This document shows positions 3 through 58,945 of a stretch of DNA of 64,000 nt, piece after piece. Made by a program: the position numbers and the translations under genes. The notes below the pieces were generated by a model. That model made no database searches. It saw nothing but the letters and a program-made list of their open reading frames with translations, and was not told the origin of the DNA. Numbering within the stretch: position 1 is the stretch's first letter; each line of letters starts with the position of its first letter. The DNA comes from a phage. The stretch lies in the sequence record PZ534515.1. One strand, written 5' to 3'.

Positions 3-5449
<5,447 letters not shown>

Positions 5450-9272: not shown

Positions 9273-9640
9273 AGTGGCTAGAGGAAGCTTTTAAAAATAA
9301 TATTGGTGCAATTGTAGTTGGTATTTTTAGTGTTATTGGGATGTATACCACCATGCAAGTCTCGGATGGTAAGCAAGAAGTGTCTATCACAACAAAGTTA
9401 CAGCAGTTAGATAATTATTCCAAAAGTAATTATTCAGCTATTCGTGATTTACAGTCTGATATGAGGCTGCTTCAGCTAGGGATGGAGAACCAGAAAGTCC
9501 AGTTAGAGAATGTTAAGGGAGAGAACGCAAAACTTACTAAGACTCTTGATAAATTCTCTGATAGTGTGAACAATCTGGCTCAGTCAGTATCAGCCCTCCA
9601 AGCTATTACTGAAAAGAACACAAAGAATACTGAAAAGTAA
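9269..9640 (+). CDS. membrane-anchored coiled-coil protein
   Basis: N-terminal TM-like segment IGAIVVGIFSVIGMY then heptad-rich region; ATGA overlap with upstream ORF. Confidence 0.45.
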   Translation: MKWLEEAFKNNIGAIVVGIFSVIGMYTTMQVSDGKQEVSITTKLQQLDNYSKSNYSAIRDLQSDMRLLQLGMENQKVQLENVKGENAKLTKTLDKFSDSVNNLAQSVSALQAITEKNTKNTEK

Positions 9641-20280: not shown

Positions 20281-20340
20281 TTTTACTCCCTCTAAAATCA
20301 TTAACCTCATACATTACTGCAAAAAATTATAAAAAGCAAG

Positions 20341-20493
20341 TTGACAATGTGCTTGACAAGGTGTTAATCTTTGCGAAGTGGGTTTTTACTTAAAAGGTTA
20401 CTTAACAGTTTAACTATACAGATACTTTAAAACTCTTAAAAGATTATTTAATAGCTTTTAAAAAGCTTTAAAGTATAACGTATAGAATACGTT
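20341..20493. promoter_or_regulatory. divergent control region: tandem TTGACA boxes and two perfect palindromes
   Basis: ttgacaatgtgcttgaca at 20341; palindromes agcttttaaaaagct (20453..20467) and aacgtatagaatacgtt (20477..20493). Confidence 0.4.
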
Positions 20494-20537
20494 AAGATAA
20501 AAGATTAAAACTTAATAGTTACTTAAAAGAGGCTTAC

Positions 20538-20960
20538 ATGCAGAAAATGTTTGTTCACCCAGACATAGCTGACTTTGTTAGAGCTTTGCAGAAGTTGGAA
20601 GAACTTGACATTGCTGCTCAACGGGAATATGCTCACCATCACAGGAGAATGGTTGATATACAACATGAGATAGAGTTGTCTGAAAACTATGAAGATGACT
20701 TAAAATGCTCTGTATTTGAGCATATGAAAGATGTTGCTACAGCGAGGCGTAAAGCTAAAGACACAGTTGCTTTACTAGATTCTCTTAAAAAGAGGTTGCA
20801 AAGTGGTACAGACCTGTGTAATCTAGCGTCACTGATTAACGATGTTGAAACTTCTTGGGATAGACATTACTATCCACGTTCTGAAAAGACACTTGACTTT
20901 TCTTCATCAGAAAACTTAAAATGTTCTAGAAAGAAACTTAACCAACTGAGAGAGAAATAA
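20538..20960 (+). CDS. hypothetical protein
   Basis: 140 aa ORF, first gene of the + operon. Confidence 0.5.
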   Translation: MQKMFVHPDIADFVRALQKLEELDIAAQREYAHHHRRMVDIQHEIELSENYEDDLKCSVFEHMKDVATARRKAKDTVALLDSLKKRLQSGTDLCNLASLINDVETSWDRHYYPRSEKTLDFSSSENLKCSRKKLNQLREK

Positions 20961-45831: not shown

Positions 45832-45848
45832 TAAGTAATTTCTTAAAA

Positions 45849-45870
45849 GGCTGCTTCGGCGGCCTTTTTT
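45849..45870 (+). terminator. intrinsic terminator
   Basis: ggctgc-ttcg-gcggcc then tttttt. Confidence 0.55.
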
Positions 45871-45931
45871 ATTTGTATTTTGTGCAGAGTGCTGTATAAT
45901 TGTGGTCACGATAAACTAAACAGGAGAACCA

Positions 45932-46480
45932 ATGAAGAAGTTGATTCTAGGTTTGTGCTTAATGTTTACAGCACACTTATCTTATGCAGTTGACTGCCCA
46001 GAGCTATCAATTAGCCAAAAAGTAAACATGTTAAAAGCTTACCAGTATGGTGAGAATAATATGGGTAAAGGTTGGGGTATCACTCTAGCTGCTATAGCCT
46101 TACAAGAGTCAGAGTTAGGTCTGAATGTAGAGAATAAAAAGACACATGATTATGGTATCTTCCAGAATCACTTGAAGACTGTTGTAAAGCGTAACAAAAT
46201 CAGTCCTAATGTGGCTAAAAAGAAACTCTTAAAAGATTTTGACTATGCTGCAAAGGAAACACACAAAGAGCTTGAGTTTTGGACGAAGGTACATGGTCAA
46301 CCAAAGTCAAAGAAGACTTTACAAAAAGTTTTAGCATCATATAATGCTGGGTATTCGTACAAAATTCCTAAAGCTAAGAAATACTCTCAAGATGTCTATA
46401 ACAATATGAAAGTCATCGCTCAATGTGAATTTGCAACAAACATTTCTAAGGTAAATCATGAAAAAATTAAGAAAGTCTGA
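45932..46480 (+). CDS. secreted lytic transglycosylase-like protein
   Basis: Signal peptide MKKLILGLCLMFTAHLSYA; ES...YGIFQ motif reminiscent of the SLT catalytic region. Confidence 0.4.
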   Translation: MKKLILGLCLMFTAHLSYAVDCPELSISQKVNMLKAYQYGENNMGKGWGITLAAIALQESELGLNVENKKTHDYGIFQNHLKTVVKRNKISPNVAKKKLLKDFDYAAKETHKELEFWTKVHGQPKSKKTLQKVLASYNAGYSYKIPKAKKYSQDVYNNMKVIAQCEFATNISKVNHEKIKKV

Positions 46481-49181: not shown

Positions 49182-49967
49182 ATGGGTATTGTAAAAATCA
49201 TCAATGGGGATATCTTCTCCGCATTTGATAAAGGTAAGTTTGATATCATTGGTCACGGTTGCAACTGTATGAACTTAATGGGTGCGGGTATCGCTGACAA
49301 GATTTCTAAACTTTACCCAAAAGCATATGAGACCGATACAGAAGTTTATCTGTATACAGGTGGTATAGGCCACAAACCCTGTGAAAATTTACTAGGCAAC
49401 TTCTCTGTAGCACGTTTAAAACAAGGCCGTATAGCTAACCTTTACACTCAGCTTCACACTGGTAAAGATGCCAGATACAGTGCTTTAGAGTCATCTCTGA
49501 AACAGCTTAACAGATACTGTGAAGTTAATCAGTTGAAGAAAGTTGGTTTACCTATGATTGGTGCAGGTATCGGTGGACTTGACCCTCAAGCCGTCACCGT
49601 TATCATTAATCAGGTGATGAAGAGTGTAGATGTCTATCTATATGTCTACGAAGGAGAGATGTACCACAAGTTACGCTCAGGTTGGAAGAACTACTGTGAA
49701 CCAGAATACTTTGCAGGTGTAGTAGTGTTCACAGATAACACAGTTACCCTCTTCAGACGAAGAAAAGGTAAGGTACATCAAAGTAACCCTCCGGTTGAAA
49801 AGATGTCTCTAAGTAACGCTCTAGTTACCCACCTGTCGAAGAGCAATCACAGAATTGCAGTAACATTTGGCAGTGATGCAGATACATATATCTATGCAAG
49901 AAATGATGAGGATGTTGAGGAAATTTTCTCTTCACCGGAAGTTACCTTCTTAGACGCAAAGAACTAA
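49182..49967 (+). CDS. macro-domain protein (ADP-ribose binding/hydrolase)
   Basis: N-terminal IINGDIF...GHGCNCMNLMGAGIA matches the macro-domain Gly-rich ADP-ribose-binding region. Confidence 0.65.
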   Translation: MGIVKIINGDIFSAFDKGKFDIIGHGCNCMNLMGAGIADKISKLYPKAYETDTEVYLYTGGIGHKPCENLLGNFSVARLKQGRIANLYTQLHTGKDARYSALESSLKQLNRYCEVNQLKKVGLPMIGAGIGGLDPQAVTVIINQVMKSVDVYLYVYEGEMYHKLRSGWKNYCEPEYFAGVVVFTDNTVTLFRRRKGKVHQSNPPVEKMSLSNALVTHLSKSNHRIAVTFGSDADTYIYARNDEDVEEIFSSPEVTFLDAKN

Positions 49968-50040
49968 GAAACTCTGTAGAATATTCACAATAGACTAAGC
50001 CTTTCTTATCTGGTAAATTTTCAGGTAAGGAGGGCTTTTT

Positions 50041-50231
50041 CATTTTAGAATTGTGCAGGTAGAGTTCTGTAGAGAAATCTGTAGAGAGAATTTTGAACTC
50101 CAAAGAGAAAATTTATTTTCAAACTGTGCAGGTAATCTCCAAAGAGCTTTTTCATTTTCAAAACGTGCAGAACCCACTCAGGTCGGGCAAGAAAAATCAT
50201 TTTAGAATTGTGCAGGTAGGTGGGTGCAGGT
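50041..50231 (+). repeat. four direct copies of an approximately 21-bp motif (cattttagaattgtgcaggta)
   Basis: Copies at 50041..50061, 50114..50134, 50152..50171 (degenerate) and 50198..50218, plus nested ctgtagaga x2. Confidence 0.6.
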
Positions 50232-50394
50232 GGGAATGTCGCCATTTCTCACAAGGCTACCACATCTGGAAATAAAAGTCAACAGAAAAATTTGTAGCGG
50301 ATTGAAAAATAATTATTGATTGTAGTTCTGTTTTGTGGTAGTCGCGCGCACCCGTTTCATTACAATTCTTGCAAAAATATTTTTAAAATTCCTA

Positions 50395-50423
50395 TTGACT
50401 CTTTGAGTATGGTTATCTAATAT
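50395..50423 (+). promoter_or_regulatory. strong sigma70-like promoter heading the small-gene array
   Basis: TTGACT, 17-nt spacer, TAATAT; followed by hairpin gggcaagcaagccc and leader ctaaactggagaatccaaaATG. Confidence 0.55.
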
Positions 50424-50472
50424 TTGCATCAGACGGGCAAGCAAGCCCACTTCCTAAACTGGAGAATCCAAA

Positions 50473-50679
50473 ATGATGTACAGTCGCGAATTGATGGTTA
50501 CAACCAACGTTAACACAAAGGCAAAACGTTTTTATATGCAAGTGTGCGGCGCATGGCGTAGAATATCAGAAGCTGATTATTGCAACTATGTAGAAACGGC
50601 AATTAACTCTAATTGCTACCTAACAAAGAATACAAAGCGACATATAAAACAGACAGCGGTTTACTATTACGATATATAA
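50473..50679 (+). CDS. small early-type protein 1
   Basis: 68 aa ORF behind promoter and leader. Confidence 0.45.
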   Translation: MMYSRELMVTTNVNTKAKRFYMQVCGAWRRISEADYCNYVETAINSNCYLTKNTKRHIKQTAVYYYDI

Positions 50680-50767
50680 AAAGTACTTTACAAGGGGCTT
50701 AAAAGTTGATATCTTAAGCCCCAGATAAAGAGCTTTACTAACTTACCTTAAACTAGGAGATTCTAAA

Positions 50768-51148
50768 ATGGCTTATCGTGCACCGAAATTCATCAATAAA
50801 GACAACTTCCGCAACGCACTGGAGAAGTCACTTGATGAAAAATTTAACGGTAAATTGATTATTGTTCACGCATTCAATTTTAAGTATGATATTAATGGGA
50901 ATAAAATCAACCATTACACGGCAACCATGATAGATGGTACACTATCAAGTGAAAAAGCCGTACTGAATGCACTTGCTGGACGCGGTAAAAACCTGATAAA
51001 ATGTGATAAGCGACGTTATCAGGGTGGCGCATATGGTTATGATGATGCTGTTTACCATCTTGAAAACATGGGCTATTCAGTGGAAAAAGCTGGAGTGTCT
51101 CAAATAATCGGCAGTGACGGCTATGTGACAATTTTCAAAATTAACTAA
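50768..51148 (+). CDS. small early-type protein 2
   Basis: 126 aa ORF behind type A cassette. Confidence 0.5.
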   Translation: MAYRAPKFINKDNFRNALEKSLDEKFNGKLIIVHAFNFKYDINGNKINHYTATMIDGTLSSEKAVLNALAGRGKNLIKCDKRRYQGGAYGYDDAVYHLENMGYSVEKAGVSQIIGSDGYVTIFKIN

Positions 51149-51236
51149 TAAAGTACTTTACAGGGGGCTTATAGTTCGATAAAGTAAGCCCCAGATAAAG
51201 AGCTTTACCACTAAATCCTAAATTGGAGATTCAAAA

Positions 51237-51527
51237 ATGGCTATTATTAAAAACGTTGTAATTCCTGCAAAAACTCGTGATGACGCTCGCATCATGGCGA
51301 AAAAGTTAGGCGGGAAAGTGGTTGACAACGGAAAACAAACTGCTGTAAGGTGGAACGTGAAGGCGGATAAACAAATGAATTTAAAAAATTCACCAATAAA
51401 CTTTTTTACATGTGTAAACACTATCGGGAAAACGAATGTATACACTAAAAAGGCATATATCAGACGCATCGCCATGACGTCACCTATTCGCACAATGAGA
51501 AGTCATGCAAAGCTGAAAATTAAGTAA
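51237..51527 (+). CDS. small early-type protein 3
   Basis: 96 aa ORF behind type A cassette. Confidence 0.5.
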   Translation: MAIIKNVVIPAKTRDDARIMAKKLGGKVVDNGKQTAVRWNVKADKQMNLKNSPINFFTCVNTIGKTNVYTKKAYIRRIAMTSPIRTMRSHAKLKIK

Positions 51528-51617
51528 TAGAGTACTTTACAGGGGGCTTAAAAGCTGATATCTTAAGCCCCAGATAAAGAGCTTTACCACTCAATCCTTA
51601 AACTAGGAGATTCAAAA

Positions 51618-52130
51618 ATGAAAACTGTAGACGCTACCTTTGAAGTTGTAAAAGAAAAATTTTCCATCATTTACGAAGCTGTCAATTGCTACGAAGCAAG
51701 CCATAATCTTGATAATTGGAAGTTTACAGATGACCATCAAGGCGGTGTGACTATTAAAAACCCCAACTGTCAGCGTAATGGATTTAAATATGCAATTCCT
51801 TTACATTACAGCCTTAAACAGCTTTCAATTGACTATGCAAAACAAGGCCGGGAAAATCCATCGAAAGAGGCTTACATCAGCTTACAGAAAGAACTAGAAA
51901 GAGATTTAGAGGCTTCAGAATATAACATCGCCGCGAAAGTTGTAGATGCAAACGGTAGCACGGTTTTAGAGAGTTTTTATATTGGTTATGCTTTCGATTG
52001 GTGCTACAGTGACGGCGATGATTTAGATGACAGACTAAAAGAGGAAGTGAACAACGCAGACGCAGAATCTGAAGTATTAGAACGCTTGGAAGCATTAAAA
52101 GATTCAGTGATGAATATCTTTAAGAACTAA
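51618..52130 (+). CDS. small early-type protein 4
   Basis: 170 aa ORF behind type A cassette. Confidence 0.5.
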   Translation: MKTVDATFEVVKEKFSIIYEAVNCYEASHNLDNWKFTDDHQGGVTIKNPNCQRNGFKYAIPLHYSLKQLSIDYAKQGRENPSKEAYISLQKELERDLEASEYNIAAKVVDANGSTVLESFYIGYAFDWCYSDGDDLDDRLKEEVNNADAESEVLERLEALKDSVMNIFKN

Positions 52131-52222
52131 ATAGATTTCTTTACACGGGGCTAACAAGCTGGTAGGATAGCCCCAGATAAAGAGATTTATCAAATAAAGC
52201 CCTTAAACTAGGAGATTCAAAA

Positions 52223-52519
52223 ATGAAATTATCAAATCAAGTGCGTGAAAATCTAAGCAAATTACTCAATAAAATTGATTTTATCGAGACATCAAGAAAT
52301 AGTCATGATGTTATGGAATGGTTACACGGCAAAATAAAAGGCCGTCGCGTAGTAATTTGCTTATGGAATAGTTGCAGGGAGTATAAAAAGCCTGTATTGC
52401 AAATTAATGTTTATGATGATACTTTTAAAAGTCCTGTTAAATCTGAAAGTGATTTATTAGAAGCTTATGAGATAACTGTAAATGGTAAAGTATCACGCAG
52501 AGAGGTAACACCATGCTAA
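52223..52519 (+). CDS. small early-type protein 5
   Basis: 98 aa ORF behind type A cassette. Confidence 0.5.
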   Translation: MKLSNQVRENLSKLLNKIDFIETSRNSHDVMEWLHGKIKGRRVVICLWNSCREYKKPVLQINVYDDTFKSPVKSESDLLEAYEITVNGKVSRREVTPC

Positions 52520-52845
52520 TGATGGGCATCACTGCAATCATCGCCATTATAGCACTTTATAAGGCTTACAGCGCCTACAATCTGGCAAGTAAGGCAATCA
52601 CGCAACAGGTCAATAATAGCCTTGTAATGAGCTTTCTGGAGCGTTTAAGTGATGAGCAAATAAAGCGGCTAGAAATGAGCTTCAGATTCAAAGCGAAAAC
52701 CTATCAGATAAGTGATATCTTCAAAGATGATTTTCAGTTAGTCGATGATTATAATTCACTGATAAATGCTTTAAATATCAGTGACTTAAAAGACTACTAC
52801 GCTGTAATTGTTCAAGAATTGAGCAAACGAAAAAATTTCTCTTGA
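52513..52845 (+). CDS. small membrane protein 6
   Basis: 110 aa, N-terminal TM-like segment GITAIIAIIALY; translationally coupled. Confidence 0.45.
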   Translation: MLMMGITAIIAIIALYKAYSAYNLASKAITQQVNNSLVMSFLERLSDEQIKRLEMSFRFKAKTYQISDIFKDDFQLVDDYNSLINALNISDLKDYYAVIVQELSKRKNFS

Positions 52846-52932
52846 TTTTGGTTTTTAAAACAAGTAAATTACTAATCAACGGGAGGGATGACCTCCCCAC
52901 TAAGTAAAGTCCTTAAACTAGGAGATTAGAAA

Positions 52933-53205
52933 ATGTATACTACTAACAACGGTCGTACTCTAAATGTAACTTTGCGCCACTATGTGAACGGTGTAATGCA
53001 CTTCGAGGATTTACAAGCCGAACAACATATCTTAGATTGGCAACTTGCAGGACTCCAAAAAACTGCTACAGGATACGGGAAAAAGATTCCAACCAGTTGG
53101 AAAGTATACTACGAAGGCCGTTTGCGCAGAATTTATCAAGATGTGCATAGCAATAGCGCAACAAGTTACATCATGGTAAAAGGCAAAAAGCTGCATTTAG
53201 TATAA
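52933..53205 (+). CDS. small early-type protein 7
   Basis: 90 aa ORF behind type B cassette. Confidence 0.5.
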   Translation: MYTTNNGRTLNVTLRHYVNGVMHFEDLQAEQHILDWQLAGLQKTATGYGKKIPTSWKVYYEGRLRRIYQDVHSNSATSYIMVKGKKLHLV

Positions 53206-53291
53206 AGTACTTTACAAGGGGCTTATAGTTCGATAAAGTAAGCCCCAGATAAAGAGCTTTACCACTAAATCCTAAATTGGAGAACTTAAAA

Positions 53292-53696
53292 ATGGCTATT
53301 AATAATCGCGAGTTATCAATCTTAAAAGCACGTTTGACCGTTAACCGGATTAATGTTATTACGTCATCAGCACCGGACGAAACATTGCACAACATTATTG
53401 GGAAGATTCAAAGCGTTATCTTAGACGTTGAAAACGTAAAAAACTCATTGGCTGACGTTGCAGCAGGTATCACGCTAGACGGTGCACAATATGAAATGAC
53501 CGACATGTTAGGCAAATCTAAGGTAATGAATAAAGAGCTTGATTTGAAAATGTTTCGATTTGCTGTTAAAGTGTGGCTATCTGTCGAGTATGACGCTAAT
53601 TTTGCAATCGCTGACTTTTTCGCAACATGGTTGCAACGTAACTTAACAAATCACGATTTTCGTAATATCTGTGATGCAATTTACGCAGAACTATAA
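53292..53696 (+). CDS. small early-type protein 8
   Basis: Start at the ATG that follows the conserved leader (track start 53277 lies within the leader). Confidence 0.5.
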   Translation: MAINNRELSILKARLTVNRINVITSSAPDETLHNIIGKIQSVILDVENVKNSLADVAAGITLDGAQYEMTDMLGKSKVMNKELDLKMFRFAVKVWLSVEYDANFAIADFFATWLQRNLTNHDFRNICDAIYAEL

Positions 53697-53797
53697 AAAT
53701 TTTTGTTGACACTGGTTTTCAGATAGATTAAATTACACATCAACGGGGCTGGAATGACCTTCCCCACTAAATAAAGTCCTAAACTGGAGATTCAAAA

Positions 53798-54001
53798 ATG
53801 GCTATTATTAACGGTTTAACCATTGAAACTACACACATCAAAGATATTAAAGTTGGTGATGTAGTCCTTTCCCACGGCGTAGAGAAAACTGTTACTGCAA
53901 AGGATATCAAAGAGGATTCTTTCATGGGTAGGACTCTCTTCGGTGATTCTTATTGCTTAGGTTATCTTGCAGTTTTAAAAGTTGTCAAAAATAACCGATA
54001 A
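53798..54001 (+). CDS. small early-type protein 9
   Basis: 67 aa ORF behind type B cassette with TTGACA-17-TAAATT promoter at 53705. Confidence 0.5.
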   Translation: MAIINGLTIETTHIKDIKVGDVVLSHGVEKTVTAKDIKEDSFMGRTLFGDSYCLGYLAVLKVVKNNR

Positions 54002-54093
54002 AGTACTTTACAAGGGGCTTAAAAGTTGATATCTTAAGCCCCAGATAAAGAGCTTTACCACTAAATCAAGTCCTTAAACTAGGAGATTCAAAA

Positions 54094-54636
54094 ATGAAAT
54101 GCTTTCACGGTACTACTCAAGAAAATTTTATCAACCTGATTAATAACGGTGATAAGCCATCAGGTGCATGGAATTGTTCGGATATGGATGGGAATTTTTA
54201 CGTTTATCCAGAAAATAAAATCTATGGCGACGATGAGGAAGAGATAATCTCTGAAGGTATCCAGCAAGCTCTGGGCAATGCCGCTATCACCGCAGCTTTC
54301 CAGATGAAAACCCAAAATATTGTTATCTTAGAACTTGATATTCCAGAAGATGAGTTAAACGATGATTATTCTTGTGATAATATGTCTGGCGTGGCAAGTT
54401 TTACAGAATATTTCGATTTAAACTGGATTAAAAAGGTTTACACCACTGAATTTAATGCTATGTTTTCACCATTTTGTCTGCCTTCACTGGATAACCCGAA
54501 TTTAAGCTATATTGACGAGTCTCTGGAACTTCTCGCTAAAAGCGTTCAACAGTCCGACAGTATTCAAGTTTTTTGTGACATCATGGACACACTGACGGGA
54601 AACATCATAGAAAGAGATTTAAAGAGCTTTTTCTGA
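54094..54636 (+). CDS. small early-type protein 10 (acidic)
   Basis: 180 aa ORF behind type A cassette. Confidence 0.5.
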   Translation: MKCFHGTTQENFINLINNGDKPSGAWNCSDMDGNFYVYPENKIYGDDEEEIISEGIQQALGNAAITAAFQMKTQNIVILELDIPEDELNDDYSCDNMSGVASFTEYFDLNWIKKVYTTEFNAMFSPFCLPSLDNPNLSYIDESLELLAKSVQQSDSIQVFCDIMDTLTGNIIERDLKSFF

Positions 54637-54702
54637 AAACCTATACAATCACCTTATAAACACTATTCAGCCCCTGTAAGGGGCTTTTAAGAGGCTTAAA
54701 TC

Positions 54703-54936
54703 ATGCTTACAACTGTTTATCTCATCCTTTCTATTTGTAACGGTCATTCATGTGATTTTAAAGGGCTTGAGGAGTTTACAGGAAGTAAAGAAAATGCCGT
54801 TCAGGTCTGTCAGATAGCAAGACAAGACTACCCCGCCAGTGATGACATTCAGTGTTATTTTAAGACAGAAGACAGCGACGGCGTTTATTTTGACAGCGTT
54901 GATGGTCAATATGAAATTATCATTGAAAAAGACTAG
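54703..54936 (+). CDS. small early-type protein 11
   Basis: 77 aa ORF; preceded by hairpin agcccctgtaaggggctttt rather than a cassette. Confidence 0.45.
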   Translation: MLTTVYLILSICNGHSCDFKGLEEFTGSKENAVQVCQIARQDYPASDDIQCYFKTEDSDGVYFDSVDGQYEIIIEKD

Positions 54937-55025
54937 ACAAGCCTGATAAAAGTCTGTAAATTGTCAATCAACGGGAGGGATGACCTCCCAACTAAACAAA
55001 GTCCTTAAACTAGGAGATTCAAAAA

Positions 55026-55366
55026 TGGCTTATGTAACCGTAATTACCAATAAAGAAGATTCATCTTGGTCAACTCAAGTAAGTGACAAGATGTCACCTA
55101 TGCAGTGCCTAAAATACTTTGAGCAATGGAACAAAGGTGAGGAAACAAGCCCCTTTCAAGTAATGCAGGTTATTCATACAGACAACGAAGGGAATAAAAC
55201 TGTTTTGAATAGTGAGTACTATGCAACCAGATTCGAAACGAGAAGTAAAGCAATGAGGCTCTTACGTGAATCCGGTTACTCTCATATTGCCGCGCTAATC
55301 TGGGATGACCTCCTAAAAAGTCAGCGTATCAGCTATGTAAAACCTGAAAAAATATTTATCAGCTAA
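55026..55366 (+). CDS. small early-type protein 12
   Basis: Start at the leader ATG 55026 (track start 54980 is an in-frame read-through of the leader). Confidence 0.5.
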
Positions 55367-55585
55367 TCAATAACTTACAAAAAACTTTTAAAAAAGTGTT
55401 GACAATGCCCCTTGACATTGGTAACTTTGTTCGAGGGGGTTTATCTAAAAGGATTCACTTAAAAGATTCTTTATAGATAAACTTAAAAAATTGCTTGCAA
55501 TCAGCTATCAAAACAAGTAAATTACTAATCAACGGGAGGGATAACCTCCCCACTAAGTAAAGTCCTTAAACTAGGAGATTCAAAA

Positions 55586-56116
55586 ATGAACAAATTTCAA
55601 GCTATCAACTACATTCGCTCAATCCATGTAATGTCAAAGCCTGTTAAAGACACCTATGAATTTCGTTGCAATGGTGTACACTTTGCAACCATCACTAAAT
55701 CAGAAAACGGGACTTATTACATTCATCGTCGTAATGTTGCAACCGTTGTAGTCTCTCACTTTATGCAAGCCGTTGCGGAACTCCTCCCGATGTTTTTAGG
55801 GCTTTACTTGGATGAGTGTAAGAATATCCGTAACCACGTTAAAAGCCTTTTAAACGGTTATAAAATGGCTTATGAACGTTCTATTCATAATTTGAACAAG
55901 TTCTATAAAGCCCCTGAAAACACCGTATCAATGGCATACGCTGTAAAGGGTGAGGCGGTGAGTCTCTTCGAAGTGGAAGAAATCGAGCTTTATGACCATC
56001 GCCCCAATGGTTACGCTAAAACTCTCGGTGAAGGTTTAACGTTTAACATCAAGAACTTAGAAAAAACTTTAAGAGATATTGAAAAAGATATTGACGAGAC
56101 AATCAAAAATCTGTAA
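55586..56116 (+). CDS. small early-type protein 13
   Basis: 176 aa ORF behind type B cassette. Confidence 0.5.
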   Translation: MNKFQAINYIRSIHVMSKPVKDTYEFRCNGVHFATITKSENGTYYIHRRNVATVVVSHFMQAVAELLPMFLGLYLDECKNIRNHVKSLLNGYKMAYERSIHNLNKFYKAPENTVSMAYAVKGEAVSLFEVEEIELYDHRPNGYAKTLGEGLTFNIKNLEKTLRDIEKDIDETIKNL

Positions 56117-56181
56117 ATTATCAATCAACGGGAGGGATAACCTCCCCACTAAGTAAAGTCCTTAAACTAGGAGTTATCAAG

Positions 56182-56445
56182 ATGGAAAACGTAGAATTAA
56201 CCACACTTTTACAAATTGCAACCGATAAAGAAAACGTAGCATTAATTCACCGCATCGAAAGTGATTTGTTCAATGGTGAAATCATCAAAGAGTCTTACGA
56301 AGTTGTCGGATTCAAAGATGGTAAAACGTTTGGATTCTTTGACCTCGACAAAGGCAACGCTGTTACAAATTACGATGTTTTATCTTGTGAGATTCTTACA
56401 AAATACAACGAAAAAAGGCTTGCAACATACACCAACATGCAGTAA
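56182..56445 (+). CDS. small early-type protein 14
   Basis: 87 aa ORF behind type B cassette. Confidence 0.5.
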   Translation: MENVELTTLLQIATDKENVALIHRIESDLFNGEIIKESYEVVGFKDGKTFGFFDLDKGNAVTNYDVLSCEILTKYNEKRLATYTNMQ

Positions 56446-56511
56446 ATTACTAATCAACGGGAGGTAATGACCTCCCCACTAAACAAAGTCCTTAAACTAG
56501 GAGATTCAAAA

Positions 56512-56760
56512 ATGGCAACTATCCGCGCAACTGTTAACGAATTTGGCTTCTACTCTCTGGATGTTAAATTTGACCTTGTAGGCACTGACAACGCCTTTGA
56601 AATGGTGAAAGGTCTTATCAGTCAGACCATCAAAGACTATAATCCTTCTGATGAGTTCTGGAAAGAAACAAAACAGGAAGTTCTTAAAGATGGTTACACT
56701 TTTCACTATTGGGGAGAAAAAATCGTCTCCCTGTACTACAACAAACAAGATTATAACTAA
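56512..56760 (+). CDS. small early-type protein 15
   Basis: Start at the leader ATG 56512 (track start 56467 is leader read-through). Confidence 0.5.
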   Translation: MATIRATVNEFGFYSLDVKFDLVGTDNAFEMVKGLISQTIKDYNPSDEFWKETKQEVLKDGYTFHYWGEKIVSLYYNKQDYN

Positions 56761-56825: not shown

Positions 56826-58353
56826 CGTCTTATGAAATGCCTATACAATCCTTTCCCTTTCCTTTCCAGAATCTTACTAGACCTTAAAAAGCAATAACTC
56901 TATAGCTTACTCTATAGCCTTTTATCAAATCAACTTAAATATAAGCCCATAACCCGAAAGGGAAGGGCAACCATTTAAACGCTCTATAAAGCCCTATAAC
57001 AGCCTTATCAACCCAACTTAAGGGATTGCATTACCTCACCCTTAAAAGCCCTTTATAAAGCTTTCTAGAGCCTTAAAAGAATCTTATAAGGTTGTAAGCT
57101 TTATCATCTCGTTAGTATCTTATGAACTACTAGAAAGGGCTTGTTAGTGTTTTAAAAGTATGTTATAGGGGCTATAAAGTTGCTTAAAAGTAGCTTAAAA
57201 GTTACGTAAATGCTAGCCCCCTTAACATTTTCTTAACAATTTCTTAACAAACCCTACATAGTTATGCTTTTAAGGCACTTGTTAGCAACTTGTTAGCCCC
57301 TTGTTAAATCTCTGTTAAAACCATGTAAAAGCCTTGTAAGAGTCTTTGACATAGCCTTTAAAGCCCCTGTAAAGCCCTATAAAGAGCTTTCTACATAGTT
57401 GGGGTGTAATTACTAGGAAGAGACTTAAAAGAGCTTACAAGGAGCTATAGAGAGCTTTTAAGAGGGCTATTTAGAGAATCACTAAGAAAGAGAGGGAACG
57501 ATAAGAAAAGAGATAGTGACCATGTTAATAGCTTGTTAAAAAGATTAAACACTTGTTAGGAACTTGTTAATTATCTTAACAAAATAACTCTTTAAAATTA
57601 ACTTGTTAGCTCTTGTTAGTCATCTGTTAAGCATCTGTAAAGACTATTCAGCACTTGTTAGAAAACTGTTAAGCCCTTGTTAGTTCTGTTAAGAAACTGT
57701 TAAGACCTCTGAAGAGATGTTAAGAAGATGTAGCAACTGTTAAGAGATTGTTAATGATATTTTAAAATTCTGCAAAGGGGATGTTACAGGGATGTTAAGG
57801 GCTACCAAGCAGATATACATCTTCTACAGATATTTTTGAGTTCCTTCAAAGACCCTAAAAAATGACTTGATAGTCCTATTTTATAAAAATTTTAAAATTC
57901 TGAATAATTACCTAGACAGTCTTTTAAAAATACAGGCATAAACAGGCTTATAAGATACCTTGTTAGTACCGTGTTAGACCTTGTGAGATAAGGTCTGTAA
58001 AGATATTCCTGTTAAGTTTGTTAAAACAGTCTATATAGAGGCTTAGTAATACCTAGTGAACACCTATAGAGGGTAACATAGCTGACATAGAGATTAAGAG
58101 GTGTATAGGGGCTTCTAAGAGTGTGTAGATGTATGGTTAAGGTGATTGTATAGGTTGTTAAGAAGGCTTGTTAGAAGAGTGTTTAGAAGGGCTATACAGA
58201 GGGGCTATTAAGACCACTAGATAGTTACTAAGATACTATATAGTACTATATAACTATATATAGAGAGTAAGCTTAAGGAGGTTGTTAAGAAGGATAGATA
58301 TTTTATTCACATATGATGGTGACCCAGAGGTTGGGACAACCGATAAAATTTTA
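56826..58353. repeat. ORF-free repeat-dense region (phased cttgttag/ctgttaag units, ctataaag units)
   Basis: No ORF of 60 aa or more on either strand over about 1.5 kb; 57600..57760 carries about 12 ttgttag/tgttaag units at roughly 10-11 bp spacing. Confidence 0.6.
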
Positions 58354-58361
58354 TAAAAATT

Positions 58362-58388
58362 AAAAAGCCCCCAATTAAGGAGGCTCTT
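58362..58388 (-). terminator. intrinsic terminator for the minus-strand operon
   Basis: Reverse complement reads agcctcc-ttaatt-gggggct then ttttt, identical to the terminator at 21792. Confidence 0.55.
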
Positions 58389-58396
58389 AAGATATT

Positions 58397-58945
58397 TTAA
58401 ATCAATGTTTCCAGAACTGTCTTCAGTGATGACTTGGTTGTCTGATAAAAATGAGTAAATCCGTTGTTGTTATCAAATATCTGCATCATGATATCATCTC
58501 CCTTGATTGGGTACACTCGGATATCATAATGGAACCCATTAAAGACAGCAGAACCATTACAGAATGCACTAAAGTCATCCACTGAGATGTACTCTTCATG
58601 ACCTGTGATTTTTATACAGATACCTTTACTCGGTCTCTTAGGGTTGATATCTTCCATCACAGACATACTCTGTCCACCAAGAGATACCATAGTGACCACT
58701 TTACGGTTCTTCTGTCTAAAGTACATTTTAACTTTCTGTAAAGTGTCTTCATAGAACGGATAAGACTTCTCTACAAAGATTCCTTCTAATGGCTCTTTAC
58801 CGTTTACAATACCTCTGGTATGACGTACTGAGAAGATAAGTTGCTCTAGTATGTCAAGGCTTTCTTCGGAGAGTGCTTCCCGAATATCATTCCAGTCAAG
58901 GACTAGGTAGTTGCCTTCAACTTCTTTTAAGTTATCTTTTTTCAT
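58397..58945 (-). CDS. hypothetical protein
   Basis: Start placed at ATG 58945 (MKKDNLKEV...) to avoid overlap; track start is TTG at 58990. Confidence 0.45.
   Translation of the reverse strand: MKKDNLKEVEGNYLVLDWNDIREALSEESLDILEQLIFSVRHTRGIVNGKEPLEGIFVEKSYPFYEDTLQKVKMYFRQKNRKVVTMVSLGGQSMSVMEDINPKRPSKGICIKITGHEEYISVDDFSAFCNGSAVFNGFHYDIRVYPIKGDDIMMQIFDNNNGFTHFYQTTKSSLKTVLETLI

Follow-up and report, generated by a model that had tools for sequence, protein, structure and literature searches.

Four conserved direct repeats in front of the small-gene array of Felix O1-like phages: a probable lineage-specific protein-binding element

A cluster of four direct repeats lies in a 505-bp non-coding gap (49968-50472) of the analysed phage DNA, a stretch of 64,000 nt from sequence record PZ534515.1 that is referred to as the window. 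The repeats share one orientation and a bipartite unit. They are found as a cluster nowhere else in the genome and are kept in the same place across related genera, where one half of the unit has changed in all copies together. This array is probably a lineage-specific, cis-acting DNA element to which a protein binds. The 2.5 kb round the array show 92-96% identity to many Felixounavirus genomes (Felix O1-like myoviruses, ~86-89 kb) and, judged by its sequence, the window is a Felixounavirus.

The features of the locus are summarized in Table 1. The array fills the gap from the terminator of the macro-domain gene toward the first sigma70-type promoter and ends 180 bp short of that promoter, the single repeats being 180-350 bp away from the nearest one. 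The macro-domain gene is the last of the upstream transcription unit and is found immediately 5' of the array in all relatives examined. Its terminator is a strong one and corresponds to t13 of the Felix O1 listing (PMC3185647). The stem of this terminator shows compensatory base changes across nine phages, and its T-tract doubles as the left part of repeat 1. Moreover, the tail CTTTTTYATTT is common to three terminators of the upstream operon and to repeat 3. The conserved A/T-rich block is placed between the array and the first promoter. The first small gene extends from 50473 to 50679 and opens an array of ~20 genes, whose 20 proteins (50473-56757) match no Pfam family and no PHROG of known function. 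Almost all of the small genes (50473-56760) have their own promoter and the leader TAAACTAGGAGATTCAAAA. The repeat motif is absent from the promoters and leaders of these ~20 genes.

Table 1. Coordinates of the repeats and of the neighbouring features in the window.
Feature	Position	Strand	Sequence or basis
Macro-domain ('phosphatase') gene	49182..49967	+	Pfam Macro, E 8e-8
Rho-independent terminator	49997..50037	+	terminator scan
Repeat 1	50035..50061	+	CTTTTT CATTTT AGAATT GTGCAGGTA
Repeat 2 with leader	50098..50134	+	CTCCAAAGAG AAAATT TATTTT CAAACT GTGCAGGTA
Repeat 3 with leader	50137..50173	+	CTCCAAAGAG CTTTTT CATTTT CAAAAC GTGCAGAAC
Repeat 4	50192..50218	+	AAAAAT CATTTT AGAATT GTGCAGGTA
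Extra right half-site GTGCAGGTG	50224..50232	+	without left half
Conserved A/T-rich block	50272..50330	+	aaaagtcaaSagaaaaatttgtagMggattgaaaaataatt...; tail alignment and entropy profile
First sigma70-type promoter of the small-gene array	50395..50423	+	TTGACT-17-TAATAT
Terminal-repeat region / physical genome end	57216..57806	+	blastn of Pr103Blw 1-1260, annotated 581-bp repeat_region

The unit of the array reads, from 5' to 3', an A5 or T5 tract, (T)CATTTY, exactly six variable A/T-rich bases and GTGCAGGTA. Repeat 3 carries the variant right half GTGCAGAAC in place of GTGCAGGTA. The tract in front of CATTTY is A5 in some copies and T5 in others, a flip that preserves the shape of the DNA and not the sequence of an RNA. 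The distances from start to start are 73, 39 and 45 bp in the window. Exact matches to ATTTTMRAAHYGTGCAG are located at 50042, 50115, 50154 and 50199, and in shuffled sequences five matches with up to two mismatches were reached in none of 100 trials. All four exact matches are on the plus strand with only 0.41 expected by chance, which bears out the four direct repeats described in the sequence-only reading. Its start positions 50041 and 50198 (both cattttagaattgtgcaggta) as well as 50114 (copy 2, tattttcaaactgtgcaggta) are correct, and the third copy (cattttcaaaacgtgcagaa) begins at 50153 and not at 50152. The motif of ~21 bp given there does repeat, but the unit is longer and extends over 28-34 nt on repeat search, the A5/T5 tract included plus the CTCCAAAGAG block for copies 2 and 3. 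From the extra gtgcagg copies that it placed at 50216..50231 a single additional half-site stands (GTGCAGGT at 50224-50231); the other copy of GTGCAGGT is part of repeat 4 (50210-50217). The extra half-site GTGCAGGTG sits in a G-rich variable segment which is confined to one sub-lineage.

The cluster is unique in the window genome and in phiEa21-4. A position weight matrix was built on 34 repeat copies from nine phages and was run over the window and the remaining 23 kb, which were taken from a 96%-identical genome. The four array sites score 37-46 bits. Outside the array 12 bits are exceeded only once, by a match of 13.7 bits at 45860 that corresponds to the T-rich tail of the terminator behind rIIB. 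A regex scan of the complete Erwinia phage phiEa21-4 genome found exactly four core matches, all of them within the array at 9324-9453 (0.25 in shuffles). The region 45840-45932 of the window contains the terminator after rIIB followed by TATTTGTATTTTGTGCAG, which represents a weak single match to the repeat motif and lies across a TATAAT (45895) that precedes the next gene.

In wV8, FO1a, SUSP2 (Suspvirus), Mordin and Sf13 (Mooglevirus) and phiEa21-4 (Kolesnikvirus) the array takes the same position, behind the terminator of the macro gene and ahead of the first early promoter. L030, a divergent 88-kb metagenomic phage, has it as well, with four copies matching the regex and one degenerate copy. 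The copy number is four in most genomes and three in one sub-lineage. When 2.9 million viral contigs were scanned with a two-copy pattern, 32 loci were obtained, 31 of which belong to Ounavirinae-sized contigs or to fragments of such genomes. None of 289 matching records lacks the array, these records having been gathered by similarity to the array region itself. The spacing of the units varies across phages from 37 to 77 bp: Felixounavirus and Suspvirus have 73/39/45, Mooglevirus has 75/41/45 and Kolesnikvirus 37/37/39. Within a unit the half-sites are separated by 6 nt without exception.

The right half-site changed in concert, i.e. in all copies together, between phage lineages. All copies read CAGGTA in the phages of E. 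coli, Salmonella and Citrobacter, whereas CATAGG or CATAAG stands in all copies from Erwinia phages and in most of those from L030. Within 18 distinct Felixounavirus sequences the column entropy amounts to 0.09 for the cores and 0.19 for the spacers, compared to 0.21 for the terminator with the sequence upstream and 0.59 for the 150 bp downstream. Order, copy number and sequence of the array are kept across genera with flanking non-coding DNA that has diverged beyond alignment. Two contigs of the scans deserve separate mention. In the IMG/VR contig 3300045988_004180 (L084/L032) a GC-rich sequence that does not resemble the phage DNA at this place directly follows repeat 3, and the contig looks like a chimeric assembly joined within the array. 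The unrelated 10-kb IMG/VR contig L022 exhibits two 50-bp tandem repeats with the core TCATTTT-N6-GTGCAG (~3898-3990, reverse strand) in front of an operon with large ORFs (151, 543, 127 and 535 aa). As this contig has no protein similarity to the window, the match is probably a coincidence.

In wV8, Felix O1, Suspvirus and Mooglevirus a C-rich tract comes after repeat 4, and on the complementary strand it forms a canonical G-quadruplex motif, e.g. GGGGAGAGGGGGAGTAAGAGGGGGAGAGGGG. The tract is found at ~1790-1830 in L002 and ~1725-1760 in L003, also in L012 and L009, which is equivalent to positions 50232-50275 of the window. The window carries a G-rich plus-strand variant with an extra GTGCAGGTGGG instead, and no canonical G-quadruplex motif was detected on either strand of its 64 kb. 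Four independent assemblies break at the C-rich tract, namely KhF1 (L004/L005), Andreotti (start of L098) and the IMG/VR contigs L080 and L081. The KhF1 sequence decays to Ns and homopolymer errors just past ...ctcttactcc, and the Andreotti contig stops at the tract with a fold-back artefact. Both metagenome contigs end at an identical base, one of them running into the Nextera adaptor. The breaks suggest that the polymerase stalls at a stable structure or, possibly, that one strand of the virion DNA is interrupted.

The position of the array relative to the physical end of the genome was derived from the terminal repeats of related phages. The direct terminal repeats of Felixounavirus are short and comprise 581 bp in Pr103Blw and 613 bp in Ro111lw according to PhageTerm; for UAB_Phi87, Bal31 digestion with run-off sequencing gave 608 bp (PMC8303462, PMC6454146, PMC4837284). 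The array was considered as terminal repeat or packaging site and rejected, as the terminal repeat of Pr103Blw maps ~7 kb off (Table 1). Likewise, the record ends of KhF1 which overlap at the array are not a terminus; they represent a low-quality read tail full of Ns. The terminal repeat begins ~7.0 kb and ends ~7.6 kb past repeat 4 with the small-gene cassette in between. Hence, a terminal early cassette of 7-8 kb, corresponding to ~8-9% of the genome, has its inner edge at the array. In seven genomes of five lineages the array is 7.0-8.3 kb away from a conserved landmark close to the right end of the repeat, and the gene content of this interval differs among the genomes. The terminal repeat together with its flank (57216-58400) is non-coding and contains ~25 copies of CTTGTTAG or CTGTTAAG, with TTAACA at the start of the repeat. 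The equivalent regions of phiEa21-4 and L030 are filled with the same CTTGTTAG, CTGTTAAG and TTAACA motifs, and L030 has a second TTAACA cluster immediately after its four-repeat array.

A rigid bipartite unit combined with flexible spacing and a concerted change of one half-site is expected of sites for a single co-evolving protein, and we infer from this combination that the array is bound by a protein. The proposal of the sequence-only reading that the repeats could be binding sites for a phage regulator agrees with the anatomy, i.e. with the asymmetric bipartite unit, the fixed 6-nt gap, the unique cluster and the concerted change of the right half. The motif search across the genome and its relatives, which it had put forward, located a unique cluster at the same place across related genera. 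The further suggestion that the array controls the switch into the small genes is awkward, because each small gene has a promoter of its own and none of these has the motif.

The concerted change between CAGGTA and CATAGG favours a co-evolving phage factor over a conserved host factor. All hosts are Enterobacterales, and their DNA-binding factors such as DnaA are assumed to be near identical. A host factor is therefore a poor explanation for the change in the right half. Sites for IHF, Fis, Lrp, Fur and CRP were compared by eye with their consensus sequences, and none fits. A Chi-like protective function was also rejected: GCAGGTGG at 50226 differs from Chi at one base, the variant of the Erwinia phages does not resemble Chi, and the one true Chi of the window is located elsewhere. 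Among 30 neighbouring proteins no binding or initiator protein was recognised by Pfam and PHROGs, the only matches being the Macro domain and a polynucleotide kinase; most proteins of the phage are orphans.

Based on this analysis, a single sequence-specific DNA-binding protein, probably a product of the phage itself, would dock onto the four repeats in tandem. It would recognise each site by the half-sites (T)CATTTY and GTGCAGGTA, which are separated by exactly six bases and have an A- or T-tract alongside. With all four sites occupied, a joint nucleoprotein complex would form where the 7-8 kb terminal cassette of small early genes has its inner border. This complex may represent an iteron-like assembly site at which replication, or the loading of the replication machinery, begins, and the adjacent A/T-rich block and the strong early promoter might assist the start. 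Such an origin role is speculative, and we put it forward as our preferred but tentative guess, with the balance leaning against it.

The origin role is favoured by the presence of four asymmetric direct repeats within a long stretch of non-coding DNA, beside an A/T-rich segment and a strong promoter. Iteron arrays consist of at least three direct repeats of ~17-22 bp in one orientation, and the window has four plus-strand copies with a core of 21-27 bp. The spacing, however, is not helically phased (~22 bp or whole turns), and a common phase across lineages was not found. The phage carries a primase/helicase and a polymerase of the T7 type (PMC3185647). DnaA boxes (TTWTNCACA) are approached in the window with three mismatches by ACCTGCACA in three copies and with two mismatches by TTCTGCACG, and every right half-site of the Erwinia phages (CTATGCACA, TTATGCACG) is one mismatch away. 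Systems with a T7-type primase/helicase and polymerase are not known to have an iteron origin, which counts against the origin role. A 40-bp window at 50355 is among the least stable 0.5%, but coincides with the UP region of the promoter, and at the scale of 100 bp the A/T-rich region on the side of the array has a stability rank of only 5%. GC skew shows no shift at the array; since it follows gene orientation only, it is uninformative as an origin marker.

A more classical candidate for the replication origin is the region 20310-20538, which counts against the array in this role. It is a divergent, palindromic intergenic region beside a 909-aa minus-strand gene that is read as the DNA polymerase. 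It contains a 27-nt palindrome, the repeated CTTAAAAGRTTAYTTAAYAG, the least stable 100-bp window of the sequence and a sign change of the GC skew.

Other explanations concern the nature of the repeats themselves. That the copies are promoters for a phage-modified RNA polymerase, as also proposed in the sequence-only reading, would agree with the A/T-rich unit and with a TAGAAT seven bases before GCAGG in copies 1 and 4. This hexamer, resembling a -10 element, is however placed in the variable 6-nt linker and is missing from the remaining copies. Moreover, a promoter class should recur before many operons, yet the motif occurs nowhere else in the window genome or in complete phiEa21-4, and neither a gene directly after the repeats nor a conserved ORF following them is present. 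The claim found no support, and we consider such promoters very unlikely. The accompanying remark that the unit does not fit a sigma70 -35/-10 layout was right, as no site was called at 50040-50390 on either strand; by eye and promoter scan none of the sigma70, sigma54, MotA-type and extended -10 layouts fits. A small ORF was rejected as well, with no stop-free frame common to the relatives. ORFs at the array are annotated as wV8 gp13, FO1a gp14 and Mordin gp014 on strands that differ between annotators, and the spacing differences (73/75/77, 39/41, 37) break the reading frame. If the array acted as RNA, it could give rise to a repeated small RNA with units of 37-45 nt, for example a mimic of a type III antitoxin (ToxI/pseudo-ToxI). 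The unit lengths of 39 and 45 nt in the window and 37-39 nt in the Erwinia phages are within the range of type III antitoxin repeats, and the minus-strand copy of each unit has AAAAU, which includes the AA/AU cleavage motif of ToxN (PMC5086642). Even so, there is no Rfam match with E values up to 10, and RNAalifold on nine phages supports the terminator hairpin only, without covarying pairs in the repeats on either strand. The folding energy equals that of shuffles (z = -0.11), no conserved RNA or single-strand DNA structure was found in the repeats, and the flip from A5 to T5 alters the RNA sequence. Furthermore, the terminator is located upstream and not downstream of the repeats, no promoter feeds them and no toxin gene is adjacent. 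Related repeats are absent from E. coli genomes, plasmids and 185,579 genomes of bacterial species (one per species), a scan which returned unrelated tandem repeats only. An element acting at the RNA level is thereby largely refuted, and hardly any likelihood is left to it. Functionless leftovers, finally, might have arisen from tandem duplications of the terminator tail and the sequence following it. The T-type left half CTTTTTYATTT is indeed identical to the tails of two terminators of the same operon (45864 and 47656). Against this stand copy number, order and sequence that are kept across genera with unalignable flanks, a conservation exceeding that of the surroundings, and a half-site change that is concerted across copies, so that leftovers appear highly improbable.

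Two further readings accept a bound protein and differ from the iteron-like assembly site in its purpose. An early or middle protein of the phage on four sites just past the terminator could form a boundary or regulatory element, acting either as a roadblock or insulator or as an architectural switch, as known from phi29 with its four p4 sites. Transcription of the upstream operon and that of the terminal early cassette would thereby be kept apart, or the shut-off of the cassette would be aided. The array extends exactly between two transcription units, from the T-tract of the terminator to 180 bp before the early promoter, and its position is conserved in all genera examined. Temporal regulation of transcription in Felix O1-like phages is stated as not known (PMC3185647). 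Nevertheless, direct repression by one array is impossible, given ~20 small genes with motif-free promoters and leaders of their own; the distance of the sites to the nearest promoter and the already strong terminator upstream weigh in the same direction. A boundary role is rather unlikely, yet a serious alternative. A host or phage protein might otherwise pause DNA transfer at the array in the style of the T5 injection stop, or the array might mark off the first 7-8 kb with the takeover genes in another manner. By analogy to T5 this would be consistent with a distance to the right-end landmark that is held in seven genomes despite differing gene content, and with a cassette whose share of the genome is near the 7.9% of the T5 first-step segment (bioRxiv 10.1101/866236). 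DnaA boxes were proposed by Davison as the T5 stop signal (bioRxiv 10.1101/866236), and the right half-sites of the Erwinia phages come within one mismatch of such a box. The sites of the window, however, are two to three mismatches off the consensus, large inverted repeats or palindromes with paired DnaA boxes as in T5 were not found at the array, and the distance to the landmark varies by more than 1 kb. No report of a two-step DNA transfer in Felix O1-like phages was found in the literature. A checkpoint of DNA entry is thus quite improbable. The wider idea drawn from the analogy to the siphovirus T5, an array that would load or anchor a terminal chromosomal domain of 7-8 kb and act as an entry checkpoint in a subfamily of contractile-tailed phages, we regard as strongly doubtful. 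If the checkpoint were real, takeover genes would be delivered and expressed ahead of the release of the remaining genome.

Our literature search on Felix O1-like phages yielded no description of the array repeats or of a replication origin. The repeats given in the Felix O1 genome paper all measure at least 24 bp and are sited elsewhere (PMC3185647). In the wV8 record repeats of promoter regions are annotated and the array repeats are not, and in several public records the array is masked by spurious ORF calls. The array is newly described and subfamily-wide, while the general type of element is familiar. Unique and conserved in the genera examined, it is the clearest candidate for a control site in the genome of phages that serve Salmonella diagnostics and biocontrol. 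It provides a short, defined probe for the search of the binding protein as well as a defined target for deletion, with replication, early shut-off and DNA entry as the processes to look at.

Compared to known systems, the array resembles ToxI and pseudo-ToxI in being made of tandem units of 36-45 nt in a phage intergenic region (PMC3475682, PMC5086642). It differs by having no Rfam match, conserved fold or bacterial counterpart and by the wrong order of promoter and terminator. The p4 sites of phi29 are inverted repeats overlapping the promoters they regulate. Like the array, they comprise four sites in one intergenic control region with half-sites rich in A/T-tracts, and p4 is a small phage regulator; unlike them, the array repeats are direct and at least 180 bp away from any promoter. 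The stop-signal region of T5 (Repeat Region 3) shares with the array conserved non-coding repeats ~8-9% in from a physical end, which bound a cassette of small takeover genes and are better conserved than the surrounding genes (bioRxiv 10.1101/866236). Repeat Region 3 is part of a 10-kb terminal repeat and over its 1.2 kb is full of inverted repeats and palindromes as well as consensus DnaA boxes in pairs, whereas the array has four direct repeats in ~190 bp outside a terminal repeat of ~0.6 kb. Iteron-type origins are known from the lambda ori with the O protein, from plasmid origins with RepA or pi and from the oriE iterons of phage T4. The array departs from them by an unphased spacing of 37-77 bp instead of ~22 bp and by lacking a recognisable initiator gene among its neighbours and, in the window, a consensus DnaA box. 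With these origins it has in common asymmetric direct repeats of ~20 bp that occur several times in the same orientation, one cluster per genome, a non-coding site beside A/T-rich sequence and a promoter, and a repeat specific to the lineage.
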